A stretch of 64,000 bases of DNA from assembly GCF_016026235.1 (NCBI RefSeq), contig NZ_CP065613.1. One strand, written 5' to 3'. The notes under the pieces were generated by a model. That model was not told where the DNA came from. It ran no database searches and saw only the letters and a list, made by a program, of their open reading frames with translations. Both the position numbers and the translations under genes were made by a program. Shown one piece after another: positions 13,915 to 54,049 of the stretch (position 1 is the first letter of the stretch; each line of letters starts with the position of its first letter). This DNA is from Escherichia coli. GTDB lineage: Bacteria; Pseudomonadota; Gammaproteobacteria; Enterobacterales; Enterobacteriaceae.

Positions 13915-13990
13915 TCCTCTGTAGTTCAGTCGGTAGAACGGCGGACTGTTAATCCGTATGTCACTGGTTCGAGTCCAGTCAGAGGAGCCA
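13915..13990 (+). tRNA. asnV: tRNA-Asn (GUU)
   Basis: Exact 76-nt tRNA-Asn sequence. Confidence 0.95.
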
Positions 13991-13997
13991 AATTCAA

Positions 13998-14027
13998 AAA
14001 AGCCTGCTTTCTAGCAGGCTTTTTGCT
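13998..14027 (+). terminator. Terminator after asnV
   Basis: Hairpin aaaagcctgctttctagcaggcttttt. Confidence 0.5.
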
Positions 14028-14045
14028 TTCTAATTACCAACGCTC

Positions 14046-14978
14046 TTAAAACATCTGTCTTGAACCAGAACTAATTTGCACAGGCATTCCCGATCGACGT
14101 TGCAACGCAGCATTTGCGCGATTCACATCAACTTCTTGCCCGTTGATAAACGCCCGCAAAGATGGGGTTACCGGCAATGGCACTTTTCGGTCAGACTCAT
14201 ATTCAGCACGATTGCGCGACAGCGGCTCATGAACTTCCAGCCACTTTGAACCATCCGGTTCCGTTGTGTATTTCACTGGCTGATCAATAATTTGCACACG
14301 AGTACCTACAGGAACATTATCAAACAGATATTTGATATCGTCATTGCGCAGACGAATACAGCCCTGACTTACCCGGAGCCCAATACCAAAATTGGCATTG
14401 GTACCGTGGATGGCATATAGCCTGCCAATATAAATCGCGTACAGCCCCATGGGATTATCGGGCCCCGCAGGAACAAATGCGGGCAAACTCTCCCCTCGTT
14501 TCGCATATTCGCGCCGGGTGTTCGGCGTTGGCGTCCAGGTTGGTGCTTCTTGTTTACGTTCAACGGTAGTCACCCAGTTACGCGGGGTTTCTCGCCCAGC
14601 CTGGCCGATACCAATAGGAAAGACTTCCACAGTATTACTGTCTGGTGGGTAGTAATAAAGACGCATCTCAGCGACGTTAACCACAATCCCTTTACGAACA
14701 GTGGCGGGCAAAATCAGTTGCTGCGGAATGGTGAGTTGCGAACCTGACTTCGGTAAGAAGACATCAGCGCCCGGATTCGCTTCCAGCATGTTACTTAACC
14801 CTTGCCCGTATTGTGCGGCAAAAGTCTCCAGCGGCTGGGTATTGTGATCAGGAACAGTTACAGTAAGCGACTGCCCCACTAAACGGCTACCCTCTGGAGG
14901 TAATGGATAAGTTACCGCCAGGCTAGTATGGCTGGCAAAAAGCAGAGCAAATGAGCAAAGAATATTTACACGACGCAT
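14046..14978 (-). CDS. ldtA: L,D-transpeptidase (YkuD/ErfK family)
   Basis: Signal peptide followed by an L,D-transpeptidase catalytic domain (HGT...GCIRL motif: [23 protein letters not shown]); recognised as ErfK/LdtA. Confidence 0.9.
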
Positions 14979-15042
14979 CATGTCCCTTTCCTAAGTCGCG
15001 AAAGCTATCGGTTAAGTATAGCTTTTATCAGACTTTTCGTTT

Positions 15043-16122
15043 TTAACTGTTCAAATCAGAAGTCGTATTCCCCGGTAGAACAATTTTACTGGCAGCAAGT
15101 TCGCCCATGTTGTTGTATATCGCACAAGCAGCTTCGATGATGGGCATCGCCAGAGCTGCGCCACTCCCCTCACCTAAACGCATCTCCATATTGAGAAAAG
15201 GCTCCAGCCCCAAATGCGACAGCGCTATACGCGCCCCTTTTTCTGCCGACAGGTGAGAAGGAATGAGATACGGTTTGATTGCAGGAGACATCTGGCAGGC
15301 TGCGAGCGCAGCAGCATAAGAAAGAAATCCATCCAGCAACACGGGTAAACCGCAGGAAGCAGCGCCTAACATCACGCCAGCCATTCCGACCAAATCAAAT
15401 CCACCCACTTTTGCCAGAACATTAACGCCATCCTGCGGATTTGGCTGATTCAACGTAATCGCCCGGCGCACAACATCAATTTTATTAGCCAGTTTATCTG
15501 TCGGCAGGTTTGCGCCAATCCCAACCACTTCTTCAGGATCCCGGCCAGTGATTGTGCTGACTATTGCTGCTGCCGGTGTCGTGTTTGCCATCCCCAGTTC
15601 ACCTACACCAAACAGCGTGACACCGTTTTTTGCCAGCTCCCGCGTATAACATATGACGTCCAAAAGTAACTTTTCAGCCTGACGGCGACTCATTGCCGGA
15701 GCTGAAGCAATATTGCCGCTACCTCGTGCGACACGCATGTTGATAAGCCCGGGGATAGGCTCAGCAGTATCAATACCAACATCAATTACGTGGACGTTAG
15801 CGCCCGCTTGTGCTGCCAGCACACACACGCCGGTTGTTCCGCGGGTCATATTTTCAGCCTGAATGGCTGTCACTTCTTTTGGGGAAATAGCGACCCCTTC
15901 CTCCCAGACGCCGTGATCGGCACACATAACCAGTACCGCTTTTTTGCCCACATGCGGTATGCCATTCAACCCCGGCATTCCCGCCAGTTGTACGCCAAGC
16001 GCCTCCAGCCTTCCCAGGCTACCAACAGGTTTGAGTAACCCGTCAATATGCCGTTGTGCACGCGACATAGCGGCAGGATCGATGGCAGGGATCGTATTCA
16101 GTAAATTGGCAAGTGTTTGCAT
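15043..16122 (-). CDS. cobT: Nicotinate-nucleotide--dimethylbenzimidazole phosphoribosyltransferase
   Basis: 359-aa product; recognised as CobT. Confidence 0.9.
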
Positions 16123-16133
16123 GTCACGTCTCT

Positions 16134-16877
16134 TTATAGCAGTGCCAGCAGGAAGACCAGTTCACCAAGCTCTATGGCTGCTCCCAGCGTATCGCCGGTT
16201 TGCCCGCCCAGCGTACGTTTGAGAAGCTGACCGAGGATGAAAATCGCCACCATCGTCACCACCATAGCAGCCACACCATGCATACCCGGCAATAATACGG
16301 CAGCAAAAATAGCGGCTAAGCCGAGTGTGACGCAGGTTTGTCGCCCATCAATTTTGCCAATGAACACATTGCCAAGCCCTTCTTCCCGGGCATAACGATG
16401 ACGATACATCAATAATGCGGCAGTCCCGCGGCTGACCGCACATGCTGCCGCCAGCGATGCAAGGATCGGTTCGCCACGCAGAGCCAACTCGCTTAACACC
16501 AAAATCTTTGCCAGTACAACAAAAATCAATGCCAGACCGCCGTGGGTACCTAAACGGCTATCACGCATGATTTCCAACATGCGATCGCGGCTACGTGCAG
16601 AAAATACGCCATCACAGGTATCAGCGAGGCCGTCCAGATGGAATCCCCCGGTCATCAGCACCAGCACAAGTACGCTAAACAGTGCCGCCAGTGGTGCGCC
16701 ACACCATGCCTGCAGCACCATGAAGACCAGCCCGCTAATCGCGCCAAGCAATAATCCAATCAAAGGAAAAGTAATAATACCGCGAGAATAATGCTCGAAA
16801 TCCAGTCCCTGGGACCAGCGACGCGGTACAGGCAGACGCGTAATAAATGAGAGCATCGCCCAAAATAATTTACTCAT
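16134..16877 (-). CDS. cobS: Cobalamin (5'-phosphate) synthase
   Basis: 247-aa membrane protein from [16 protein letters not shown]. Start overlaps the cobU stop by 4 nt (ATGA), typical of translational coupling. Confidence 0.9.
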
Positions 16878-17419
16878 TTGATTTTTACTCCAATACCCGA
16901 AACCACCAGCCATACTTCATTTGCCGCAGCGGCCAACTGCTGATTTACCCGCCCGGCAATATCACGAAAATGTCGTGCCAGACGACTCTCCGGCACAATC
17001 CCCATTCCCACTTCGTTAGTCACTAATACAACCTTTGCGGGGCAACGTTGGCAGGCAGCAATCAACGACTGAATCTCAGCATTAATCGCCTGTTCCATCG
17101 CCTGATAATCCCATTCATCAGGGTCTTTATCGCCGCCATAATCAAACAACAGATTAGTCACCATTGTGGTAACGCATTCAAGCAACACAACCTCATTCGG
17201 GTTAATGTCTGCATGAATTAATTCATCAAGATGTTGCCAGCGCTCCACTGTGCGCCAGTGCTCCGGGCGGCCTTGCCGATGATGTTCTATCCGTGCAGCC
17301 ATCTCATCATCAAGGATTTGCGAGGTAGCGATATACAGAACCTGTGAAGAGTCCCCAATAAGCGCCTCTGCGTGGCGACTCTTCCCGCTCCGTGCGCCCC
17401 CCGTCACCAAAATCATCAT
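16874..17419 (-). CDS. cobU: Adenosylcobinamide kinase / adenosylcobinamide-phosphate guanylyltransferase
   Basis: 181-aa product with P-loop GGARSGKS; recognised as CobU. Confidence 0.9.
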
Positions 17420-18692
17420 ACCGACTCCTGATTCAAATGTATGATGGTATTCATTGAACAGAACAATGGATCCCCCACCGTTGCTGACCGCAAAACATTT
17501 ACGCGATTAATACTGCGCGTAATATAATTAAAAATCCAGCATTCTCAATCCATTACGAAATAAGATGGCATTACGGAATAGCCAGACTTTCTCGTGTTAA
17601 CGTCCGACAAAATGCGTCATTGACAGCGGTTTCTGTGGATTGACACATTTCATTCAGATAATGAATTAATGCTACTGCCGGAACAACCAGCAAACGGGCA
17701 TTGTGTTCTGAAATCCAGGCTATTGATTCAACGTCAGCGACAGATCTGCGCTGTAAAAGAACTTGTAAAACAACGTAATAGAATTATCCGGAATGGTGGC
17801 GACTATGCACTAGAACACCACAATTTCGCTCTCTCGGTAAGGCACTGTCACAGCATTCAACAGAATGTGACTTGCCAGATTTATTAGCGCCACCAGATGT
17901 TTAACCGGGTAACCACGACCCAGTCGGGGATATATTCCATCTTCTCGCTGACATCATCAAGAATAAAAAGGTTTATCACACTCAGAGCAACGTTCTTCAG
18001 CAGGCGGGATAATTCTTCAACATTTAAAAGATGTGTTATTAAAGGCATACAAACTGGACGTATTGTATTTTCTTTTGGTGGTTGACCTAAGGTAGCAGTT
18101 TATCCTGATGCGCTGAGATTTCTGTAATATCTACGTCAACATTCTCCTCGAATAGAAAATGCAGCCCCGGCAAGTGATTCACATTTTTTAACAAAACGTT
18201 GTTAGCGTGCCATTTTCAGAAGCTCTCCAAGAAAGCGAATTCTTTTCTCAAATTCTGCATTCTCAGACACAGCTTTCTACTCCATGGCAATGGCCCAAAT
18301 ACGAAGTTGCTCAGGATCATTAGTGGTGCTGAGAAGTTAAATAACCATGCGGAGTACCACTCGTCATCACGTATTTATATATCATGAAGCTATTGTTGTG
18401 TTTTGTACATCAGTAGATGTATTCTGATATACTCCTTTTGCTAGACATAACCTTTCACCTGCTTGCAAAGCTTCTGTGTTCTGACATTGCCAAATTGTTG
18501 CAATTCTGTATCCAGCCTTCTTTCAGTCATAGCTTCGGGCCGCGATAAGACTCACTGATCTGACCCTGATTCCTCTTGCAGACTTTATAGACCAATTAAA
18601 ATGCAGTTTCTGCAGGTCAACGTCTGACCATCATTGTCATCACTCTGGCCATTAGAGTAACCTTCTGCATTCATCCTTTTGTAAAAAGTTTA

Positions 18693-19335
18693 TAGACTGG
18701 CCCCCTGAATCTCCAGACAACCAATATCACTTAAATAAGTGATAGTCCTGATACAAGTTTTTAGAGTAGTCATTAGTGAACAGATAATTGTTAACTTAGA
18801 ACCAGTAAAATGCAAACGACGCACCACGCTGGGAAAATCGCTGCTATTCAGCAGAGTTTTGTACCGAGAATTGTGGCCAGCCACTTATTGCTCTCGCGTA
18901 AGCAGGTATCCCTATCGTTTACCAGTCCAGCACATCTTGTGGTCAGGCAGAAGAAGAGCAAACTGTTACTGGACTCACTGCATGCATGGTGGAGAAAAAT
19001 GCCACGCTATCCAAAAATCCAGACTGGGAGAATGGTTCAGCTGTGTACTGAATCAGTGGGGCGCACTCTGTTATTACAGTGTTGACGGTCAGGCGGAGGC
19101 AGACATAATGCCGCGGAAAAAGCCCTTTGTGCCATCTGTCTCGGAAATAAAAACTTTATGTTCTTCGGCGGCGAGCGCAGTGCACTGTTGTATGGGCTTA
19201 TCGGCACTTGCCTTCTGAACGACATTGATCCGGAAGCGTATCTGCGCCATATCCTGAGCGTACTGCCGGAATAACCTTCCAACCGTATTGATGAACTCCT
19301 GCCATGGAACGTAGCACTCACCAATAAATAAGCGT
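18693..19335 (+). mobile_element. Composite IS relic: IS2-type left end with decayed orfA, followed by the C-terminal fragment of an IS66-family TnpC
   Basis: 18693-18747 is identical to the first ~55 bp of the IS2 left end at 27064, then diverges. At 19150-19330 the translation KNFMFFGGERSALLYGLIGTCLLNDIDPEAYLRHILSVLPE ... DELLPWNVALTNK matches the conserved IS66 TnpC C-terminus. No intact ORF. Confidence 0.5.
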
Positions 19336-19360
19336 CAATACGGCACTCCGTTAACGCTGA

Positions 19361-20871
19361 TATGACTTTCCGTGTCAAACCGGAATCTCTAATTTTGACG
19401 ATTTTCTTTTTAGGTTTAATTCCCTGAGGGCGACGTAGCAGTAAATCCGACGGTGAATCACGCTGATATTCGCGGGTTGGATACCGCATTACAGAGGTCC
19501 GTCATATGAGCCTGCCACTTTCTTACGTCGCGAATCAGCTTTGTTCCGCCGTCGCCAAGCGCTAACGTGGGTTACTCTTGTACCGGGCTACGTCGCCTTC
19601 AGGGAACTGGTTATTCTCATTTTTTATTTGTGACATTGTGGTTGTTGTGCGACAGACATTGCTATTCGGCCCATATCCCAGATAAAACCCGCCAGCTCAC
19701 GTGCAACAGCAACAATTGTAATATTGACATTCTTTCCTTTGGCCTGAAGTTTTCGATACCTCTTACAAAGCCTGAGTTGAGCATCCCATGCTCTGTCAAT
19801 GACGGGGCGGGGTAAATTTTCCTGCCTTTTTGTATTGCCGGACTGATGCGTGCCGGATGACGGTAACTCCACGCTGCCTCGACCAATAGCTTTCTGGCAT
19901 AGCTGTTTCCGGCTTTGGTAATGCTGCCCTGATGTCTGCTTCCACCCGATGAATATTCTGATGGCGTGATACCAAACCATGACATCAGTTGTCGTGGATG
20001 TTCAAAACGGGTCAGATCACCCAGTTCAGAAATTAATCCAACCGCAGTAATAAACTGAATCCCTCGCATGGCTTGCAGCGCCTCTACTACCGGATACAGC
20101 CTCCATTCGGTAACGGCCTCCTTCAGGGCGGATTCCAGCCGTTCACATTGTGCCTGCCGGTCTTCTATTGTACGACGGTGTTCGTCAAAAGCTAATTGTC
20201 GCCAGGGACTTTCGAATGAGTATTTGCTGAGCCAGCGTCGGTGTGCAGGGCCCCAATCTGCTCGCCCGACATAATGGACCCCATGAACCAGAAGAAACGA
20301 TTTCAGACGTTGCCTTGCATGCCGTAAATCATCGCGGGCAGATGCCCATGCCCGGGCCAAATCCCGGAATGCCTCATCTTCAATGCCGGGTACGTAGACA
20401 GCAGAAAGATCTCCTGCACGCAGTGAACGCACAAGTCTGATGGCATCACGGCGATCGGTTTTAACCCGCTCCCCCGGTTTTTTCGGGATAAGTGAGGGGG
20501 CGCAGACCATGCAGTCAAAACCGGATTTCACCAGCCGACGATAAAGTCCATAACCACAGGGCCCCGCTTCATAAACGATACTGACCTGCGATGACTTTGA
20601 CCTGAGACGTTTACAAAGATTCTGAATATCAGTAGGTGATGTGCCAATTTTACCCATCAGTTCAACAGGTTCTGAATTGATAGCATAAGCGACAGTAATC
20701 GATTCTTTGTGAACATCTAACCCGACGTACAATGTGTTATTGTTGTTCATGCTGGCCTCCGTGGTGGAAATACCGGGGTGTAGCAACAGCTCACCCATGC
20801 GGCTCTGACAACGATGTTAACCCGCGTTAAATATCCCACGTTGGCCAGCATCTGTCTCACGGAAAGTCATA
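19361..20871 (-). mobile_element. IS110/IS1111-family insertion sequence (about 1.5 kb) bounded by 14-bp inverted repeats
   Basis: Perfect inverted repeat TATGACTTTCCGTG at 19361-19374 and its reverse complement CACGGAAAGTCATA at 20858-20871 enclose a single transposase gene plus about 290 bp of non-coding sequence on its 3' side. Confidence 0.6.
19662..20750 (-). CDS. IS110-family (DEDD-type) transposase/recombinase
   Basis: Product MNNNNTLYVGLDVHKESI... has the N-terminal DEDD/RuvC-like domain and the C-terminal transposase_20-type domain (…FGITPSEYSSGGSRHQGSITKAGNSYARKLLVEAAW…). Confidence 0.8.
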   Translation of the reverse strand: MNNNNTLYVGLDVHKESITVAYAINSEPVELMGKIGTSPTDIQNLCKRLRSKSSQVSIVYEAGPCGYGLYRRLVKSGFDCMVCAPSLIPKKPGERVKTDRRDAIRLVRSLRAGDLSAVYVPGIEDEAFRDLARAWASARDDLRHARQRLKSFLLVHGVHYVGRADWGPAHRRWLSKYSFESPWRQLAFDEHRRTIEDRQAQCERLESALKEAVTEWRLYPVVEALQAMRGIQFITAVGLISELGDLTRFEHPRQLMSWFGITPSEYSSGGSRHQGSITKAGNSYARKLLVEAAWSYRHPARISPAIQKGRKIYPAPSLTEHGMLNSGFVRGIENFRPKERMSILQLLLLHVSWRVLSGIWAE

Positions 20872-20988
20872 CTGCCTTACCTTTTCTCAGGCTATTTTTG
20901 CTTTTTTTTGCTTTTCCCCGCCACTTTATGGTGATTATCACATCAATATACATCGATAGATATTAACGTAACTGAAGTGAGGTGAAGC

Positions 20989-22203
20989 ATGAAATTTGAA
21001 CGCCATCATGAAATATTGAAACGACTCAGTAAATTCGGTTCTGTAAAAGTATCCGATCTGTCCAATAGCCTCAATGTAACGAAAGAAACTATTCGTTCAG
21101 ATCTTAATGAACTTGCCAGGCTTGGCTATCTGACTCGATGTCATGGCGGTGCTTTTATCGTCCTAGACTCGCTTGATACTATTGCGAAAAATGAAATCGC
21201 TTATGCGCTTGAAAATTATGATACAGCCCAGGGAATAAAAAAAGGCCACTCAACTATGAAAAGTCAAGTATGCGTTATTGGTTCGTTTAATGTTGATATC
21301 ATCAGTTATTTGCCGAGGCTTCCCACTATCGGAGAATCGCTTCTGGCAAGTAATTTTATATTTTCACCGGGGGGAAAAGGCTGTAACCAGGCGCTGGCAG
21401 CAAGCTTTGCCGATACTGATGTTTATTTCATAACAAAAGTAGGTACAGATCACTTTAGTGATTATGCGATCAACTTTATGAATTCGTCTAAGATTTATAA
21501 AAGTATAATTTATCAAACGAAAGAAACGCAAACCGGAACTGCCACGATCCTTGTTAATGAAGGTACTGGCGATAATGTTATTGCGATCTATCCCGGTGCC
21601 AACATGACAATGTCGTCCGATGAAATAACTATTCAGAAAGAAGCGATTATTAATTCTGATGTCATACTTCTGCAGCTCGAAACAAATTATACCGCTCTGC
21701 AACAAGCGATCACATTGGCGCAAAAAAACAGTATCCCGGTCATTATTAACCCGGCACCCTATAATGATATCGTCAACGAACTTATTCAGGATGTTGATTA
21801 TATCACCCCCAATGAAACAGAAGCTGGTTTACTGTCCGGCATAGACGTACACGATCTTGAATCAGCTAAACGAGCTGCAGAAGCTATCCACAATAAAGGG
21901 GTAAAAAACACGGTTATCACGCTCGGTAGCAAGGGCTCGCTCGCATTTGATGGCAAAAAATTCATTCATTCGCCAGCGTTTCCAGCGGTCGTTAAAAATA
22001 CGGCAGGAGCCGGGGATGCGTTTAACGGCTCTCTGGCATCAGGACTTGCGAAAGGAAAATCACTGGAATCAGCACTGTGTTATGCCAGCGCCTTTGCATC
22101 CCTAGCGGTGGAGACAAGCAATGCTTCCGACATGCCTGAACATGAATCTGTGATACATCGAATTCAGAGTATACATTATCAGCAAACTATTTTTACGCAT
22201 TAA
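20989..22203 (+). CDS. Fusion protein: N-terminal DeoR-type HTH domain plus PfkB/ribokinase-family carbohydrate kinase
   Basis: Single 404-codon ORF. Residues 1-60 look like a DeoR HTH (VKVSDLSNSLNVTKETIRSDLNELARLGYLTR). The remainder carries both PfkB signatures (GGKGCNQA and AGAGDAFNG). Confidence 0.7.
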   Translation: MKFERHHEILKRLSKFGSVKVSDLSNSLNVTKETIRSDLNELARLGYLTRCHGGAFIVLDSLDTIAKNEIAYALENYDTAQGIKKGHSTMKSQVCVIGSFNVDIISYLPRLPTIGESLLASNFIFSPGGKGCNQALAASFADTDVYFITKVGTDHFSDYAINFMNSSKIYKSIIYQTKETQTGTATILVNEGTGDNVIAIYPGANMTMSSDEITIQKEAIINSDVILLQLETNYTALQQAITLAQKNSIPVIINPAPYNDIVNELIQDVDYITPNETEAGLLSGIDVHDLESAKRAAEAIHNKGVKNTVITLGSKGSLAFDGKKFIHSPAFPAVVKNTAGAGDAFNGSLASGLAKGKSLESALCYASAFASLAVETSNASDMPEHESVIHRIQSIHYQQTIFTH

Positions 22204-22216
22204 GAAGGGACAGAGA

Positions 22217-22975
22217 ATGAATAACACCAAAAAATCACTAAAAGTGCTCTTTATTGGGGAATCCTGGCATATTCATATGATTCATTCAAAAGGATATGAC
22301 AGTTTTACCTCAAGTAAATATGAAGAAGGTGCGACCTGGTTACTCCAGTGTCTGAAAAATAGTCAGGTAGATGTCACCTATATGCCAGCACATACGGTAC
22401 AAATTGCCTTCCCTGAAGATGTGGCACAGTTAGAACAATATGATGCCATCGTTATTAGTGATATTGGTAGTAATACTTTCCTGCTACAAAATGATACTTT
22501 TTATCAGCTTCGCATAAAACCAAACGCTCTCGAACTGATTAAAGAATATGTGAATAACGGTGGTGGGTTATTGATGATTGGCGGCTATCTCTCATTCATG
22601 GGAATTGAAGCAAAAGCCAATTATAAAAATACAGTTCTGGCTGATGTGCTCCCGGTTACGATGTTAGATGGTGACGATCGTGTCGAAAAACCAGAGGGTG
22701 TTATTGCACAGCCATCACAACCTGAACATCCAGTTATTAAAGGGTTCTCTGAATATCCTTTTTTCCTAGGTTATAACCGGGCGATCGCTAAAGAAAATGC
22801 TGAGGTGGTATTAACAATAAACAACGCTCCATTACTGGTCTTTGGTAACTATCACAACGGGAAAATAGCCTGCTTTATGAGTGACTGTTCACCGCACTGG
22901 GGTACACAGCAGTTTATGTCCTGGCCGTTCTATACCGCGTTGTGGGTAAATATACTGACTCATATTGCAAGATAA
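22217..22975 (+). CDS. Hypothetical protein (possible class-I glutamine-amidotransferase-like / ThuA-like fold)
   Basis: 252-aa ORF 14 bp downstream of the kinase gene. Fold assignment comes only from the overall pattern (VLFIGESWH..., NGGGLLMIGGY) and is weak. Confidence 0.35.
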   Translation: MNNTKKSLKVLFIGESWHIHMIHSKGYDSFTSSKYEEGATWLLQCLKNSQVDVTYMPAHTVQIAFPEDVAQLEQYDAIVISDIGSNTFLLQNDTFYQLRIKPNALELIKEYVNNGGGLLMIGGYLSFMGIEAKANYKNTVLADVLPVTMLDGDDRVEKPEGVIAQPSQPEHPVIKGFSEYPFFLGYNRAIAKENAEVVLTINNAPLLVFGNYHNGKIACFMSDCSPHWGTQQFMSWPFYTALWVNILTHIAR

Positions 22976-23031
22976 TAATAATAATGGGGTAACTCCAGTT
23001 ACTCCATTTACTATAATAGAAGGATTGATGT

Positions 23032-23997
23032 ATGAAAAAGAATAAGTACTCAACTCCCTTATGGATGCTTGCCACGATTCTTGCGGGTATGCTCTCCCCT
23101 ATGCAATCAGCGGTGAATGGTCAATTAGGTCACTGGTTACAGGATGGTAATGCATGCGCAGTTATCTCCTTTGCCAGTGGTTTAGTCGTGATGTTTTTTA
23201 TTATTATGGCGCGAAAAGAAACCCGGCAACAATTTGCGGCAATTCCTTCTCTGATTAAAAACCGAAAAGTTCCTCTCTGGAACTGGTTTGCCGGTCTCTG
23301 TGGAGCGATGGTGGTATTTTCTGAAGGCGCATCAGCCAGCGCACTCGGGGTCGCAACGTTTCAAACCGCACTGATCTCCGCGCTATTGCTGTCTGGTTTA
23401 CTTTGCGATCGCTTTGGTATCGGTGTCGACGAGAAAAAATACTTTACCCCTTATCGCATCATCGGTGCATTATTTGCGGTTATTGCTACGATTTTTGTTG
23501 TGTCACCTCAGTGGCATTCTACCTCTTTCATCTTACTTGCCATTCTTCCGTTCTTAGCTGGTTTGCTTGCAGGATGGCAGCCCGCTGGAAATGCAAAAGT
23601 AGCTGAAGCTACGGGATCCATGCTGGTTTCAATCACCTAGAATTTCATCGTTGGATTTTGTGTTTTAGGCACAGCGCTAGCTATTCGTGTCGCATTAGGG
23701 CACGTCACTGTTCAATTACCAGATGTCTGGTGGATGTATCTTGGCGGCCCGCTTGGACTAATGTCTATCGGTTTAATGGCCATTTTGGTCAGAGGTCTGG
23801 GGTTACTGATGCTGGGGGTTGCTTCAACGGCGGGCCAGTTACTGGGATCAGTATTGATTGACGTATTAATTCCATCGCTGGGCAATAGCGTTTATCTGGT
23901 CACGATCATCGGAACACTGTTTGCACTGGTCGGTGCAATTGTTACCACTATTCCGGAATACAGAACCTCGAAAACAATGAAGAAAATGGAGGTATAA
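23032..23997 (+). pseudogene. DMT-superfamily (tandem DUF606 / YdcZ-like) inner-membrane transporter interrupted by an in-frame amber codon
   Basis: ORFs 23032-23640 and 23734-23997 are in the same frame. The intervening codons read on as membrane-protein sequence (...NFIVGFCVLGTALAIRVALGHVTVQLPDVWW-MYLGGPLGLMSIGL...) once TAG at 23638-23640 is read through. Confidence 0.55.
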
Positions 23998-23999
23998 TC

Positions 24000-25034
24000 A
24001 TGAAAGATTATCTACAAACTGTGACGGGCCCCGTCGCCCGTGAAGATATGGGGCTAACACTTCCTCATGAACATCTGTTCAACGATCTTTCCTCTGTTGT
24101 GGATGCTCCTTGCTATCCTTTTTCACAACGGCTTGTTGATAAAAAAGTCACGGCAGAAATCCAGTGGGCATTAAAACACGATCCTTATTGCTGCGCTGAT
24201 AATATGGACCGCAAACCTATTGAAGATGTGATCTTCGAAATTAATAACTTTATCTCGCTCGGTGGTCGCACCATTGTTGATGCCACAGGGTCTGAGTCTA
24301 TCGGACGAGATGCGCAGGCATTACGAGAAGTCGCATTAAAAACAGGTCTGAATATTGTTGCTTCCTCCGGTCCCTACCTGGAAAAATTTGAAAGCCAGAG
24401 AATTCATAAAACGGTTGATGAACTGGCGACAACGATCGATAAAGAATTGAATCAAGGGATTGGCGATACGGATATTCGTGCCGGAATGATCGGTGAAATA
24501 GGTGTTTCACCGACATTTACCGAAGCCGAGCATAACAGCTTGCGGGCTGCCTCGCTGGCACAGATTAACAATCCTCATGTGGCGATGAATATTCACATGC
24601 CGGGCTGGCTTCGTCGCGGTGATGAAGTACTCGACATTGTGTTAGGTGAAATGGGCGTCTCGCCAAATAAAGTCTCTCTCGCACACTCGGATCCGTCAGG
24701 AAAAGACGTGGCGTATCAGCGGAAAATGCTTGATAGAGGTGTCTGGCTGGAATTCGACATGATTGGCCTAGACATTACCTTCCCGAAAGAGGGAATAGCG
24801 CCAGGGGTGCAGGAGACTGCCGATGCCGTCGCTCATCTCATTGAGTTGGGATACGCCGATCAGCTTGTTCTCAGCCACGATGTCTTCCTTAAACAAATGT
24901 GGGCTAAAAATGGCGGTAATGGCTGGGGATTTGTTCCAGATGTTTTTCTGGCCTATCTGGCGGAGCGCGGCGTCGATAAAACGATCCTCAAAAAACTCTG
25001 TATCGATAATCCCGGACGATTATTGACCGCATAA
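24000..25034 (+). CDS. Phosphotriesterase-family (PTE/Php-like) metal-dependent hydrolase
   Basis: 344-aa product with the N-terminal metal-binding motif TLPHEHL and overall amidohydrolase/PTE layout. Confidence 0.75.
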   Translation: MKDYLQTVTGPVAREDMGLTLPHEHLFNDLSSVVDAPCYPFSQRLVDKKVTAEIQWALKHDPYCCADNMDRKPIEDVIFEINNFISLGGRTIVDATGSESIGRDAQALREVALKTGLNIVASSGPYLEKFESQRIHKTVDELATTIDKELNQGIGDTDIRAGMIGEIGVSPTFTEAEHNSLRAASLAQINNPHVAMNIHMPGWLRRGDEVLDIVLGEMGVSPNKVSLAHSDPSGKDVAYQRKMLDRGVWLEFDMIGLDITFPKEGIAPGVQETADAVAHLIELGYADQLVLSHDVFLKQMWAKNGGNGWGFVPDVFLAYLAERGVDKTILKKLCIDNPGRLLTA

Positions 25035-50439: not shown

Positions 50440-50713
50440 GACAATGCAGTGATACAGGGTATAGTGCCATTAACCACAGAAACAGCACTGTTGTCCTGTA
50501 TTAAGCAGGCAAGAGAAGATGTCCTTACCCTGCGCCATCTGCAGCTTCTGCACCAGAACCAGTGAATCTCACTCAACAGGCTTCATTTCCCCTGACGCCA
50601 GCCTGAATACAGCTGGCGTTTTCATTTATAAACAGAAAGGAAAACCGATAATAATGGAATGGACGCCCCTACCATGAAGCAACGGTAGGATATTACTGAT
50701 AAACCTTCCAGTG

Positions 50714-51752
50714 GAGGTGCGTTATGGCCGTTTTAACGATTAGCATTGACCTGACAAAAAATGAATTCCAAATCCACGGTCTGGGTAGGAACAGAAAAAT
50801 CTAAGCTCAGAAAACGGATTAAACGTTCCCTGATGCCCGTATTCTTCGCGAATATGTCTTCCTGTCGGATTGGGATGGAGGTCTGCGCCGGAGCGCGTCA
50901 TTAGTGAGAATGCTGTCTACTTAGGGGCATAATGTCAGACTAATGCCCGCGATTTGTAAAGCCATATGTGAAAACAAACAAGAATGATATGGCTGCTGCC
51001 GAGGCCATCTGTGAAGCCGTTACCCGACCTAATATGCGGTTTGTCAGCATCAAGACGCCTGAGCAGTAGTCATTACTGTCTTTTCATCGTGCCCAAACGG
51101 GATTTGTTAAATCAAGGACTGCGCAGATAAACCAGATCAGAGGATTACTGGCTGAATTTGGCATCGTTCTCCCGCCCGACATTGTAGCATTCAGTCGTCA
51201 TGTCCCTGCCCTGCTTGAAGACGCGGAAAACTGTTTAACAATGCCGTTCAGACAGCTGTCGTCCTATCTCTAATGAAAATGTGTAACAACTGAGCGTACA
51301 CATTGAAACCATAGAAGCCGTGAGCAACGAACACGTCGGGAACGACGAACTGTGCAGGAAAATTGCCACCATTTCGGGGATTGCTATTCTTACCACCACT
51401 GCAATTGTCAGCACCGGGTAGTATCGGCTTCAAAAACCGGCGTCAGCTTGCTGCATGGCTTGGACTGGTTCCCCGACAGTGCTTCAGCGTAGGTAAAAAC
51501 ACGCTGGGGTCTATCAGTAAACAGGACGATGTCTATATCAGAACGCTACTGTTCCATGGTGCGAAGACAGTGTCAAACGCCAGAAAGGGCAGACAGGTCC
51601 AGGAAAGTTGGCTGGGCAGACCAGTCTCGCGGCGGAATAAAAATGTTGCCACCGTAGCGCTGAACAACAAAAATGCCAGAGTGCTCTGGGTATTGCTAAC
51701 CAACGATAAAGAGATTTCACCAGAAGAAGTGATGGTAGCTGCATATATGTAA
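50714..51752 (+). pseudogene. Degraded IS110-family transposase (yoeD-like remnant)
   Basis: N-terminal stub MAVLTISIDLTKNEFQIHGLG and C-terminal segment ...RQLAAWLGLVPRQCFSVGKNTLGSISKQDDVYIRTLLFHGAKTV..., separated by frameshifts and stops. Confidence 0.6.
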
Positions 51753-52189
51753 ATGAAACTACTTCTGTCTGTTGAAAAATAAAACCAACCTACTGATTGC
51801 TAAGGATAAACAAGTATTAAAGGCCAGACTGATAAGACCGCGACTAAGTGAACCTGTATCTGACATTGCATAGCTTCGCTAATGTGTCAATCATGATTAG
51901 GACTAAATCTGTGAATTCCTTTAGGAAGCACGGACACAGGCCAATCTGAGTCCATATGTATGATTGGAATCTTACACAGATGACTTTTTGACACGGGGAC
52001 TTGGCAAACAGGGGCGACCATGTATGTCAGATATGACAATCTCACTTCCGAAAGAAGTCAACGGGCACGTTATCTGTTCAACCAGAATCCGACACATTCT
52101 GGCTATACGAAAGAGCATACTTATGCAAATCTATATGCTTTTCCGGCAACAAGCAGGAATCTCAGCGCTGAGGCAGGAATTAGAGGTAA

Positions 52190-52389
52190 AAACGCCCTAC
52201 CGGGCCATGAATCACCCGGTCATTGGAGTAGTAACCAAAGCAGATTTAGCCAGCATGGAACACATATCTTTGGTGAAATGTTGGTTACGGGAAGCTGGAG
52301 CGCACAACGTGTTAGTAACCAGTGCGGTTAATAACAATGGAGTTACAGAACTTTTTGCCTTGCTGCATACAGAAGAAGGCTGTTGCTAA
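52190..52389 (+). pseudogene. Remnant resembling the C-terminus of a EutP/PduV-type GTPase (yoeF-like)
   Basis: Translation PVIGVVTKADLASMEHISLVKCWLREAGAHNVLVTSAVNNNGVTELFAL; no intact N-terminal part. Confidence 0.35.
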
Positions 52390-52489
52390 TTTCGATAGGT
52401 TCTCAGATGAGAATGATGACGGTGATACACAGATAAGAATCAATGAGCAATGAGGGTTGCCGGGCAACCCTCATTGAATAAAACAGGAA

Positions 52490-52819
52490 TTACTTCGCTT
52501 CGCCGTTTTTCATTTCGCCCATAGCTTTCAGCTTTTTGGAGATATCGCGGCGTTCTTTGGAGAGCTCGGCATTTTTGATGATGTAATCGTCAACGCGATC
52601 TTCATAGTCACCTTTCATGCTGGCGATGATGCCCTGGATTGCTTCAACGCTCATCCCGGGCTTGATGTAATCGCTCAGGTTGTCCAGCAACAGGACGCGC
52701 TTCTGGTTGTCACGGATCTTTTTCTCAACGTCCTGAATTTCACGTTGCAGTTTGTTCTTACGACGGAACAGACGAACAAATTCCAGTACGTCCTGGAATG
52801 AAGGCTTGGTAGTTTCCAT
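52490..52819 (-). CDS. yeeX: UPF0265 / DUF496 protein
   Basis: 109-aa product [30 protein letters not shown]... Confidence 0.85.
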
Positions 52820-52990
52820 TTTTATACCCCTGATAATGTGAGAGTCGGATTCGTTTAAGCAACCGCTATTCGTTAGGGCCAACATTACTCATAGCTGCCG
52901 CAGATGACAATGCTTTTATCCCTTTTCACTATCATACCCTTTATCCTTGCTGAATCGAAGCAGCAGCAAGATGATTCTGAAGTTCAGGAA

Positions 52991-54049
52991 TTATTTGCGC
53001 AAGGCCCGGCAAATCAGACTCGATAGCAACTCAAGCTGATGTGCCGTTTCCATGTTCAGCCACACATAACCATAGATTGGTGTTTCCACAACCTTCAGGT
53101 CATGGTGGTTATTCAGCAACTGACGCAGCTCTTCCACAGCATCGTTCAATTTTTCCGTATTGGCAAAAACCGGCTGCGGATTACCTTCGTACAGCGCATG
53201 AACAAGGCTCAGCAGTATTTGCTGCATCATGTGCTGGGTATCACGAAGTTTTTGCGCGTTCAATAACACGAAATGGCTGGGGCGCGTGGCCCAGTATGCA
53301 TTGATTTGCAACTCCAGCATACAAACCAGATTGCGGTTAATGGTCTGGATACCTTCATATATCGATTTTGGAATACGAGTTTCTTTGCTGGCGGGCGCAA
53401 TCAGCCCACGCATTTTCACGGCATCGGTCAGGAGTTTTTGTAGATGGCTTTCCAGACGTGGGCGTTCGAGTAAGTTCGGTGAGAATGCAGATTGATAAAC
53501 CCGATTATACTCGGTCAGACTTTTCGCCAGTTGAATGCGCCAGTGGATGAACGCCCGTTGTGGCCAGATACCGGTAAACAACATTGCCAGTAAAGAGCCG
53601 AGGATCACATCGCCGCTTCGCCATAACGCCGTATCAATTTCACCTGTCGGGGAACCCACAACAATTGCCAGCGTCACCCCAATCAATAATCCTTGATACG
53701 GTTTCTTGCCCAGCGCCAGCCAACCGCAAAGAAACATAGCCGCCGCGCACCAGACTAACATCAGCGGTAACGAAATTAACTCCAGTTGCAGAGCGATAAG
53801 ACCTAAAATCGAACCCAACACCGTACCGCCAATACGTTCGAAGGCGCGAGGGACAACGTTACCCCAGAACGAGATTGGCCCCATAATCACCACCATGGTG
53901 ACCAGCGGCCAGGTGCTTTCCGGGATAGTAAACAGGCGGATAATGAGAAAAGTGAGCAGGAATGCCAGCGCGACCCGAGTACCATGCACAATGCGGTAAT
54001 GGCGGTATACCCGGATTTCAAACGGGCTTAATGACTTATCGGCACGCAC
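52991..54049 (-). CDS. yeeA: Inner-membrane protein YeeA (FUSC-like)
   Basis: 352-aa protein with an N-terminal membrane domain. Confidence 0.85.
   Translation of the reverse strand: MRADKSLSPFEIRVYRHYRIVHGTRVALAFLLTFLIIRLFTIPESTWPLVTMVVIMGPISFWGNVVPRAFERIGGTVLGSILGLIALQLELISLPLMLVWCAAAMFLCGWLALGKKPYQGLLIGVTLAIVVGSPTGEIDTALWRSGDVILGSLLAMLFTGIWPQRAFIHWRIQLAKSLTEYNRVYQSAFSPNLLERPRLESHLQKLLTDAVKMRGLIAPASKETRIPKSIYEGIQTINRNLVCMLELQINAYWATRPSHFVLLNAQKLRDTQHMMQQILLSLVHALYEGNPQPVFANTEKLNDAVEELRQLLNNHHDLKVVETPIYGYVWLNMETAHQLELLSSLICRALRK

Follow-up and report, generated by a model that had tools for sequence, protein, structure and literature searches.

Probable two-layer relic of a pdu-cob locus and insertion-sequence fragments next to cobU at the edge of a variable island in Escherichia coli

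Results and discussion

In this study, we report that the 1273 bases directly after cobU in a stretch of Escherichia coli DNA (positions 17420-18692) very probably represent a two-layer relic without an intact gene, in which remains of the pdu-cob locus are followed by a conserved left arm of insertion sequence (IS) fragments. The window, that is, the whole stretch of DNA analysed, comprises 64,000 nucleotides of contig NZ_CP065613.1 (NCBI RefSeq assembly GCF_016026235.1), and coordinates refer to it unless another sequence is named. The first layer (17420-17715) would be a leftover of the ancestral Escherichia pdu-cob locus, namely the spacer upstream of cobU with its promoter and the last 47 codons of a relic ORF. 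The second layer (17716-18692) would be the conserved left arm of a variable island, the K-12 version of which is CP4-44. The features on which this reading is built are as follows.

16874..17419, minus strand: cobU, first gene of cobUST, a 181-aa ORF called cobU by RefSeq in all matching genomes
17420..17570, minus strand: spacer upstream of cobU with the cobUST sigma-70 promoter, from a promoter scan and a published catalogue
17548-17543 and 17526-17521, minus strand: cobUST promoter hexamers, -35 TTGAGA and -10 TATATT, with a 16-nt spacer and 10 of 12 matches
17571..17715, minus strand: tail of the relic cbiG-like ORF, stop codon and last 47 codons, by alignment with full-length alleles
17715..17716, no strand: junction of ancestral cob-locus DNA and the island left arm, from the N3 homology breakpoints and a 120-nt probe
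17716..17911, minus strand: piece from within an IS4-family transposase gene, matching codons 178-240 of a relative with 440 codons and interrupted by one in-frame stop; yeeH and the low end of yoeG
17811-17814, no strand: CTAG, duplicated around IS5H in K-12 and unoccupied in the window
17905..18348, minus strand: codons 1-151 of an IS66-family TnpC, broken by several stops and disturbed in frame; K-12 pseudogene yoeG
18349..18466, minus strand: 3' tail of an IS66-family tnpB and the tnpB-tnpC gap, by nucleotide identity to plasmid IS66
18463..18692, minus strand: 3' non-coding end fragment of an IS110-family element, recognised by about 70% nucleotide identity only and cut off at 18692
18693..18866, plus strand: IS2-like (IS3-family) left end, IRL and decayed orfA start, truncating the conserved left arm
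52207..52389, plus strand: counterpart on the right, the tail of pduV (its last 60 codons), belonging to K-12 yoeF and immediately preceding tmaR/yeeX

Comparison with K-12 and distribution in E. coli

A sequence-only reading of this DNA had described the stretch as standing where K-12 has an IS5 and pseudogenes. Comparison with K-12 overturned that description: K-12 is 100% identical to the window over 16808-17813 and 99.7% identical over 17810-18694, and because the sole difference is IS5H, the stretch is K-12's own sequence without IS5 and not an alternative to it. At the insertion site, K-12 reads ...GCACTAG, then IS5, then CTAGAACACC, where the window reads ...GCACTAGAACACC. When the MG1655 annotation was mapped onto the window, yeeH (b4639) fell at 17723-17809 and yoeG (b4640) at 17816-18348, and the annotated start of CP4-44 corresponded to about 17675, some 40 bp from the junction at 17715/17716. 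On this comparison, we regard 17420-18692 as a copy of the K-12 CP4-44 left end without IS5, already annotated there as pseudogenes.

The left end of the K-12 cryptic prophage CP4-44 (yeeH, yoeG, IS5H, then yoeH and yoeA) is thus the same DNA as the window, with the same cobUST promoter. It differs in carrying IS5H at CTAG 17811-17814, which the window lacks, and in what follows the left arm. K-12 has yoeH, yoeA, yeeP and flu, whereas the window is cut at 18693, is without those genes, and runs into the 3' fragment of an IS66, a copy of an IS110 and a gene module with a PfkB kinase. Through 18694, both K-12 and strain O55:H7 are 99.6-100% identical to the window.

A megablast search with 17420-18692 gave a match in 5403 of 5426 complete E. 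coli genomes. In 2857 of the 5426 (53%), 80% or more of its length was covered, mostly at identities of at least 99%.

Location of the island boundary

The island-free strain N3 matches the window over 16819-17715 and then over 52207-53021, and between these two blocks it holds 280 bp of relic ORF and pduV sequence that the window, like other island genomes, does not have. As homology in island-free genomes breaks off after 17715 and picks up again at 52207, we assign 17716-52206 to the island of the window. The earlier proposal that the stretch marks the island boundary therefore stands in part. The boundary does lie inside the stretch, but the N3 breakpoints place it at 17715/17716 and not at 18692, so that on the corrected map it moves 977 bp nearer to cobU. 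With regard to conservation, the first 296 bp are core sequence, found in island-free genomes, and the other 977 bp are not core, although they are nonetheless common to genomes with quite different island cargo.

A 120-nt probe across 17715/17716 was covered to at least 80% in 3728 of the 5426 genomes (69%), among them K-12, BL21, Nissle 1917, ST131, O103:H2 and O55:H7. A probe across 18692/18693 was covered in at most 700 of the 5426. In a second island-free strain, ET120, position 17607 is joined to 52216 across a CCG microhomology. In both N3 and ET120, next to cobU comes a short ORF, whole or as a remnant, and after it a pduV reduced to a 3' fragment, tmaR (yeeX) and yeeA. To the left and to the right of the ET120 join (L005 6185-6188 against window 17604-17607 and 52216-52219), less DNA has been kept than in island genomes, and the ET120-type site could be a secondary deletion either of the whole island or of an N3-type scar.

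On the right-hand side, the pduV tail of the window matched positions 88-142 of 143 of Pfam PduV-EutP (E 2.9e-12), and intact pduV is the last gene beside tmaR in pdu-positive E. coli. No paper linking yoeF to pduV, or CP4-44 to pdu, was found in the literature collection searched.

The relic ORF and the ancestral pdu-cob locus

The pdu-positive Escherichia genomes carry pduV...pduA followed, on the other strand, by pduF, pocR, a cobalamin riboswitch (Rfam 105-113 bits), the relic ORF, cobU, cobS and cobT. The arrangement pocR-riboswitch-relic ORF-cobU was found in 642 of the 5426 complete E. coli genomes (12%). The corresponding locus of Salmonella is laid out as pduA-X, pduF, pocR, the B12 riboswitch, cbiA-P and cobU/cobT. 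The Klebsiella pdu-pocR-cob locus, read from a record in a plasmid collection, has the same frame as that of pdu-positive Escherichia, gene order and orientation included, with a full cbiA-cbiP in place of the relic ORF. The riboswitches of the two share 85% nucleotide identity, and their cobU products share 84% amino acid identity over the N-terminal 31 residues and 81% over the full 181 aa. What survives of this locus in the window is its edge next to cobU and the tail of pduV; everything from mid-relic ORF to mid-pduV has been lost.

At full length, the relic ORF has 136-145 codons, as in some E. coli, the cryptic Escherichia clades, E. albertii and E. marmotae. The 47 codons of the window align with the C-terminal third of such ORFs (136-145 aa) from E. 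coli, E. albertii and E. marmotae. Full-length alleles matched the NCBIfam model NF004463 (CbiG) over positions 1-121/126 of 351 with E-values of 4e-19 to 2e-21, and residues 1-119 of Klebsiella CbiG with 40% identity (E 3e-21). The 136-aa allele closest to the window, P0007, matched only positions 1-72 of the model (E 3e-14). The full-length alleles scored 53-77 bits against the curated cutoff of 546 bits for the 351-position model and thus fall outside the CbiG family. The 47 codons of the window, when searched alone, gave no significant match to Pfam, NCBIfam or Klebsiella CbiG. By its alignment with the full-length alleles, this piece is classed as a cbiG-like relic and not as a CbiG.

Identification of the relic as the 3' end of cbiP, by analogy with the Salmonella gene order, was rejected, as there was no Pfam GATase_3 or Klebsiella CbiP match and the alleles match the CbiG N-terminus. 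A comparison with the Klebsiella cbi genes detected no remnants of cbiP or other cbi genes beside the relic ORF, and a PDB profile search with the ORF returned no match. In the pdu-positive E. coli and E. albertii loci (L007 5608-6411; L008 7608-8435; L016 23843-24673), a full riboswitch lies downstream of pocR and is followed by the relic ORF, without cbiA-cbiP. There the relic ORF consists of the first ~119 cbiG codons and an unrelated tail, and it is open across species.

We propose that the island arm took the place of the pdu operon, pduF, pocR and the riboswitch, which would have been lost here along with the relic ORF's first two thirds. Cut off from pocR and the riboswitch, cobUST would have been left on its internal constitutive promoter. 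Three features of the relic allele shared by the window and K-12 recur in one pdu-positive haplotype (L007), namely an early TAA, a 9-bp deletion and a change of Gly to Glu, and the relic allele of N3 is the longer allele of another pdu-positive haplotype, GF60. Because the window allele and the N3 scar allele match different pdu-positive haplotypes, the loss of pdu in the window lineage was probably independent of the N3-type deletion from the relic ORF to pduV, a conclusion to which we give moderate weight. Recombination could also produce this allele pattern.

The relic ORF had a Ka/Ks of 0.37-0.40 between E. coli and E. albertii, against 0.03-0.08 for pocR, pduF and cobS. Constraint on the ORF is strongly relaxed, the value is not clearly neutral, and a Ka/Ks below 1 leaves room for some constraint in pdu-positive strains. 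A different and, in our judgement, rather unlikely reading has two linked parts: the relic ORF, instead of being mere debris, would encode a small protein or translated leader kept under riboswitch control, by which cobUST expression is coupled to B12 status, and E. coli would have lost pdu at this site at least twice independently, once by a clean deletion of the N3 type and once by island replacement. Even if both parts were true, the window would still hold only the dead tail of the relic ORF.

The preferred reading, a two-layer relic, would make the locus an example of how most E. coli lost the pdu operon together with PocR/riboswitch control of cobUST, leaving a simple constitutive promoter. 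On a plainer appraisal, the stretch is ordinary non-coding debris common in E. coli, already known and of little consequence.

The cobUST promoter

The arrangement TTGAGA-16-TATATT is given as the constitutive sigma-70 promoter of cobUST in a genomic SELEX catalogue obtained in vitro with K-12 (PMC3946193). The hexamers of the window are identical to that entry and, by this sequence match, qualify as a sigma-70 promoter. The spacer upstream of cobU is conserved whatever the type of E. coli locus, in pdu-positive and scar genomes as well. The cobUST promoter appears to be the only working element in 17420-18692.

The hexamers are disrupted in E. albertii, where the gene calls of three contigs include neither cobU nor cobT in the interval from the relic ORF to cobS or in that from cobS to ldtA (L008 8435-9877). 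The cobUST genes may be decaying in that species.

Insertion-sequence fragments of the left arm

All IS pieces of 17716-18692 lie on the minus strand. The IS4-family fragment gave 75% identity over 63 aa in a tblastn search (E 8e-25) and 79% nucleotide identity over 17724-17911. It also matched positions 132-191 of 332 of the NCBIfam model transpos_IS4_1 (E 3.6e-4), in agreement with the PGAP annotation. Its transposase homology is clear; a complete element is not present, since the fragment holds 63 of 440 codons, has an internal stop and is flanked by foreign sequence. Position 17716 was considered as an IS4-family terminal inverted repeat, as would be left by an IS-mediated adjacent deletion, and this was ruled out by the internal position of the fragment in the gene.

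The TnpC of a plasmid IS66, used as a tblastn query, picked out the adjoining IS66-family piece (E 5e-24, 152 aa aligned, 47% identical). At the nucleotide level, 17906-18466 is about 70% identical to plasmid IS66 elements, and the similarity runs across the tnpB/tnpC boundary. Only the last 18 residues of TnpB could be aligned as protein, and weakly (E 0.025). This is not a complete IS66 gene set with intact ends; tnpA was not detectable, and only TnpC 1-151 and the last tnpB codons remain.

The O55:H7 counterpart of the IS110-family piece (L002 7044-7447) shares 69-72% identity with the 3' end of IS110-family elements from plasmids; the relatives of 18463-18692 are carried by plasmids of Escherichia and Pantoea. 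What is left is about 230 bp from the 3' non-coding part, with neither the IS110 transposase gene nor termini. The homology does not reach the terminus of the plasmid relatives but sets in about 20 bp inside it, which leaves a precise insertion of IS110 into the IS66 tnpB unsupported. Because the fragment starts inside the terminus of its relatives, the order of the IS events is not reconstructable. The fragment junctions would have arisen from successive IS insertions and deletions rather than from site-specific integration.

The view that the stretch ends at an IS2-type left end was borne out. The sequence from 18693, TAGACTGGCCCCCTGAATCTCC..., is identical over 55 nt to the left end of K-12 IS2F, and identity of 18693-18866 to K-12 IS2 is 83%, ending near 18866. 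The left terminal inverted repeat is present, and a complete 1.3-kb element with orfA/orfB is not. An IS66 C-terminal fragment (18945-19304) follows the IS2-like remnant. Homology of the window to O55:H7 and K-12 stops at 18692-18694. In O55:H7, the left arm runs about 400 bp further into an intact TonB-dependent receptor gene, which corresponds to the split pseudogene yoeA of K-12, where the arm continues into yoeH and the IS2-split yoeA. In this lineage, the arm is cut at 18693 by an IS2-like element that is now a remnant too.

Like other IS 'graveyards' at genomic-island borders, the stretch consists of abutting, truncated pieces of the IS4, IS66, IS110 and IS3 families, with no intact ends or transposase genes. 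It is unremarkable among them but for its age and spread, one identical junction being found in 69% of complete E. coli genomes.

Coding capacity of the stretch

The sequence-only reading had held that the stretch contains no credible gene and may contain remnants of deleted genes, and the present analysis agrees with it on both counts. The remnants are the tail of the relic ORF and the IS fragments. As to intact genes, the longest ORF starting with ATG, GTG or TTG in 17420-18692 is 72 aa, and the longest stop-to-stop frame, taken over all six, is 87 aa. When the sequence was simulated with a first-order Markov model, the longest frame was 97 +/- 22 aa, with 65% of the simulations reaching 87, so that the frame lengths are those expected at random; an equal length of cobT, measured in the same way, has a stop-to-stop frame of 372 aa. 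The GC content is 0.411 (41.1%) against 0.523 (52.3%) in cobT-cobS-cobU.

An Rfam E-value scan of 14000-24000 yielded no credible match, with a single chance-level match outside 17420-18692. Pfam and NCBIfam scans of the other stop-to-stop frames in the stretch gave no match, and the repeats within it were just short two-copy chance matches. RefSeq, on the identical stretch in other genomes, annotates two pseudogene fragments, together with a 54-aa 'hypothetical protein' in some of them. PGAP names the first a 'cobalamin biosynthesis protein' missing its N-terminus, and the second an 'IS4 family transposase' with an internal stop and both termini missing.

That 54-aa product (WP_001128468.1, at 17884-18048) is one ground for supposing that the stretch hides a functional small gene or RNA, either this ORF or an antisense or regulatory transcript. 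Another is the in vitro binding of RNA polymerase upstream of K-12 yoeG; the sequence listed for that site, TGTACA-17-CATGAT, occurs in the window at ~18372-18400 on the minus strand. However, the ORF lies inside the stop-riddled IS66 tnpC remnant and extends across the IS66/IS4 joint, PGAP does not call it in O55:H7 or K-12, and neither the Pfam, NCBIfam and Rfam searches nor the ORF lengths lend support. We consider a hidden gene or RNA very unlikely, and WP_001128468.1 is best regarded as a chance ORF within the tnpC remnant.

Search for an attachment site

The sequence-only reading had further suggested that the stretch may hold remnants of the original attachment region, which might be recognised by direct repeats shared with the yoeF/yeeX junction. 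The left and right regions share none longer than 12 nt: a blastn-short comparison of 17400-18800 with 50500-52700 gave no match above that length, with E-values at chance level. There is no tRNA close to the left junction, the nearest being tRNA-Asn at 13915-13990, 3.4 kb away. No integrase is listed in the RefSeq annotation of the near-identical island of strain PEC408, and only IS fragments adjoin the junction. With no junction direct repeat, no adjacent tRNA and no attachment-site signature, the suggestion is not upheld, and the island here shows no sign of site-specific integration.

These results weigh against a strain-specific junction stretch that replaced the IS5 and pseudogenes of K-12 and preserved the original attachment region of the island. 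An ORF-poor stretch between core genes and island cargo, with an IS end at its border, would suit such an origin. Against it stand the near-complete identity to K-12 apart from IS5 and the presence of most of the stretch in over half of the complete genomes, as well as the missing repeat, tRNA and integrase, and we judge it highly improbable.

Least probable of all, and hardly credible, is that 17716-18692 is old core Escherichia sequence secondarily lost by island-free strains, for although the junction occurs in 69% of genomes and the stretch is common to genomes with different cargo, this part is made up entirely of IS fragments, it does not occur in pdu-positive E. coli or E. albertii, in which the locus is colinear with the Klebsiella pdu-pocR-cob locus, and N3 cannot derive from the island state because it keeps the 280 bp of relic ORF and pduV that island genomes are without.

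Other features of the island

Several further features were observed within the island. The IS66 3' fragment at 19203-19358 is 89% identical, in inverted orientation, to yoeD at the right end of K-12 CP4-44 (L017 4023-4178). This likeness may be the trace of an old rearrangement, or one IS66 relative may have been present in two copies. An IS110-family element (19359-20875, with a 378-aa transposase ORF at 19662..20798 on the minus strand) is inserted precisely where this fragment ends. The island of PEC408, otherwise near-identical, is without this element, and its sequence (L001) joins window position 19358 to 20876.

A second IS110-family element lies just inside the right junction (50824-52135) and is unrelated at the nucleotide level to the copy at 19359-20875. 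K-12 has the IS66 fragment yoeD in its place. Between this element and the pduV remnant are 71 bp of island sequence (52136-52206) in common with K-12.

The cargo at 20989-25034 comprises a 404-aa ORF with a DeoR-like/PfkB kinase fusion, a glutamine amidotransferase, a DMT transporter and a phosphotriesterase-related protein. It can be described as a small metabolic module; at the same position, K-12 CP4-44 carries yoeA, yeeP and flu.
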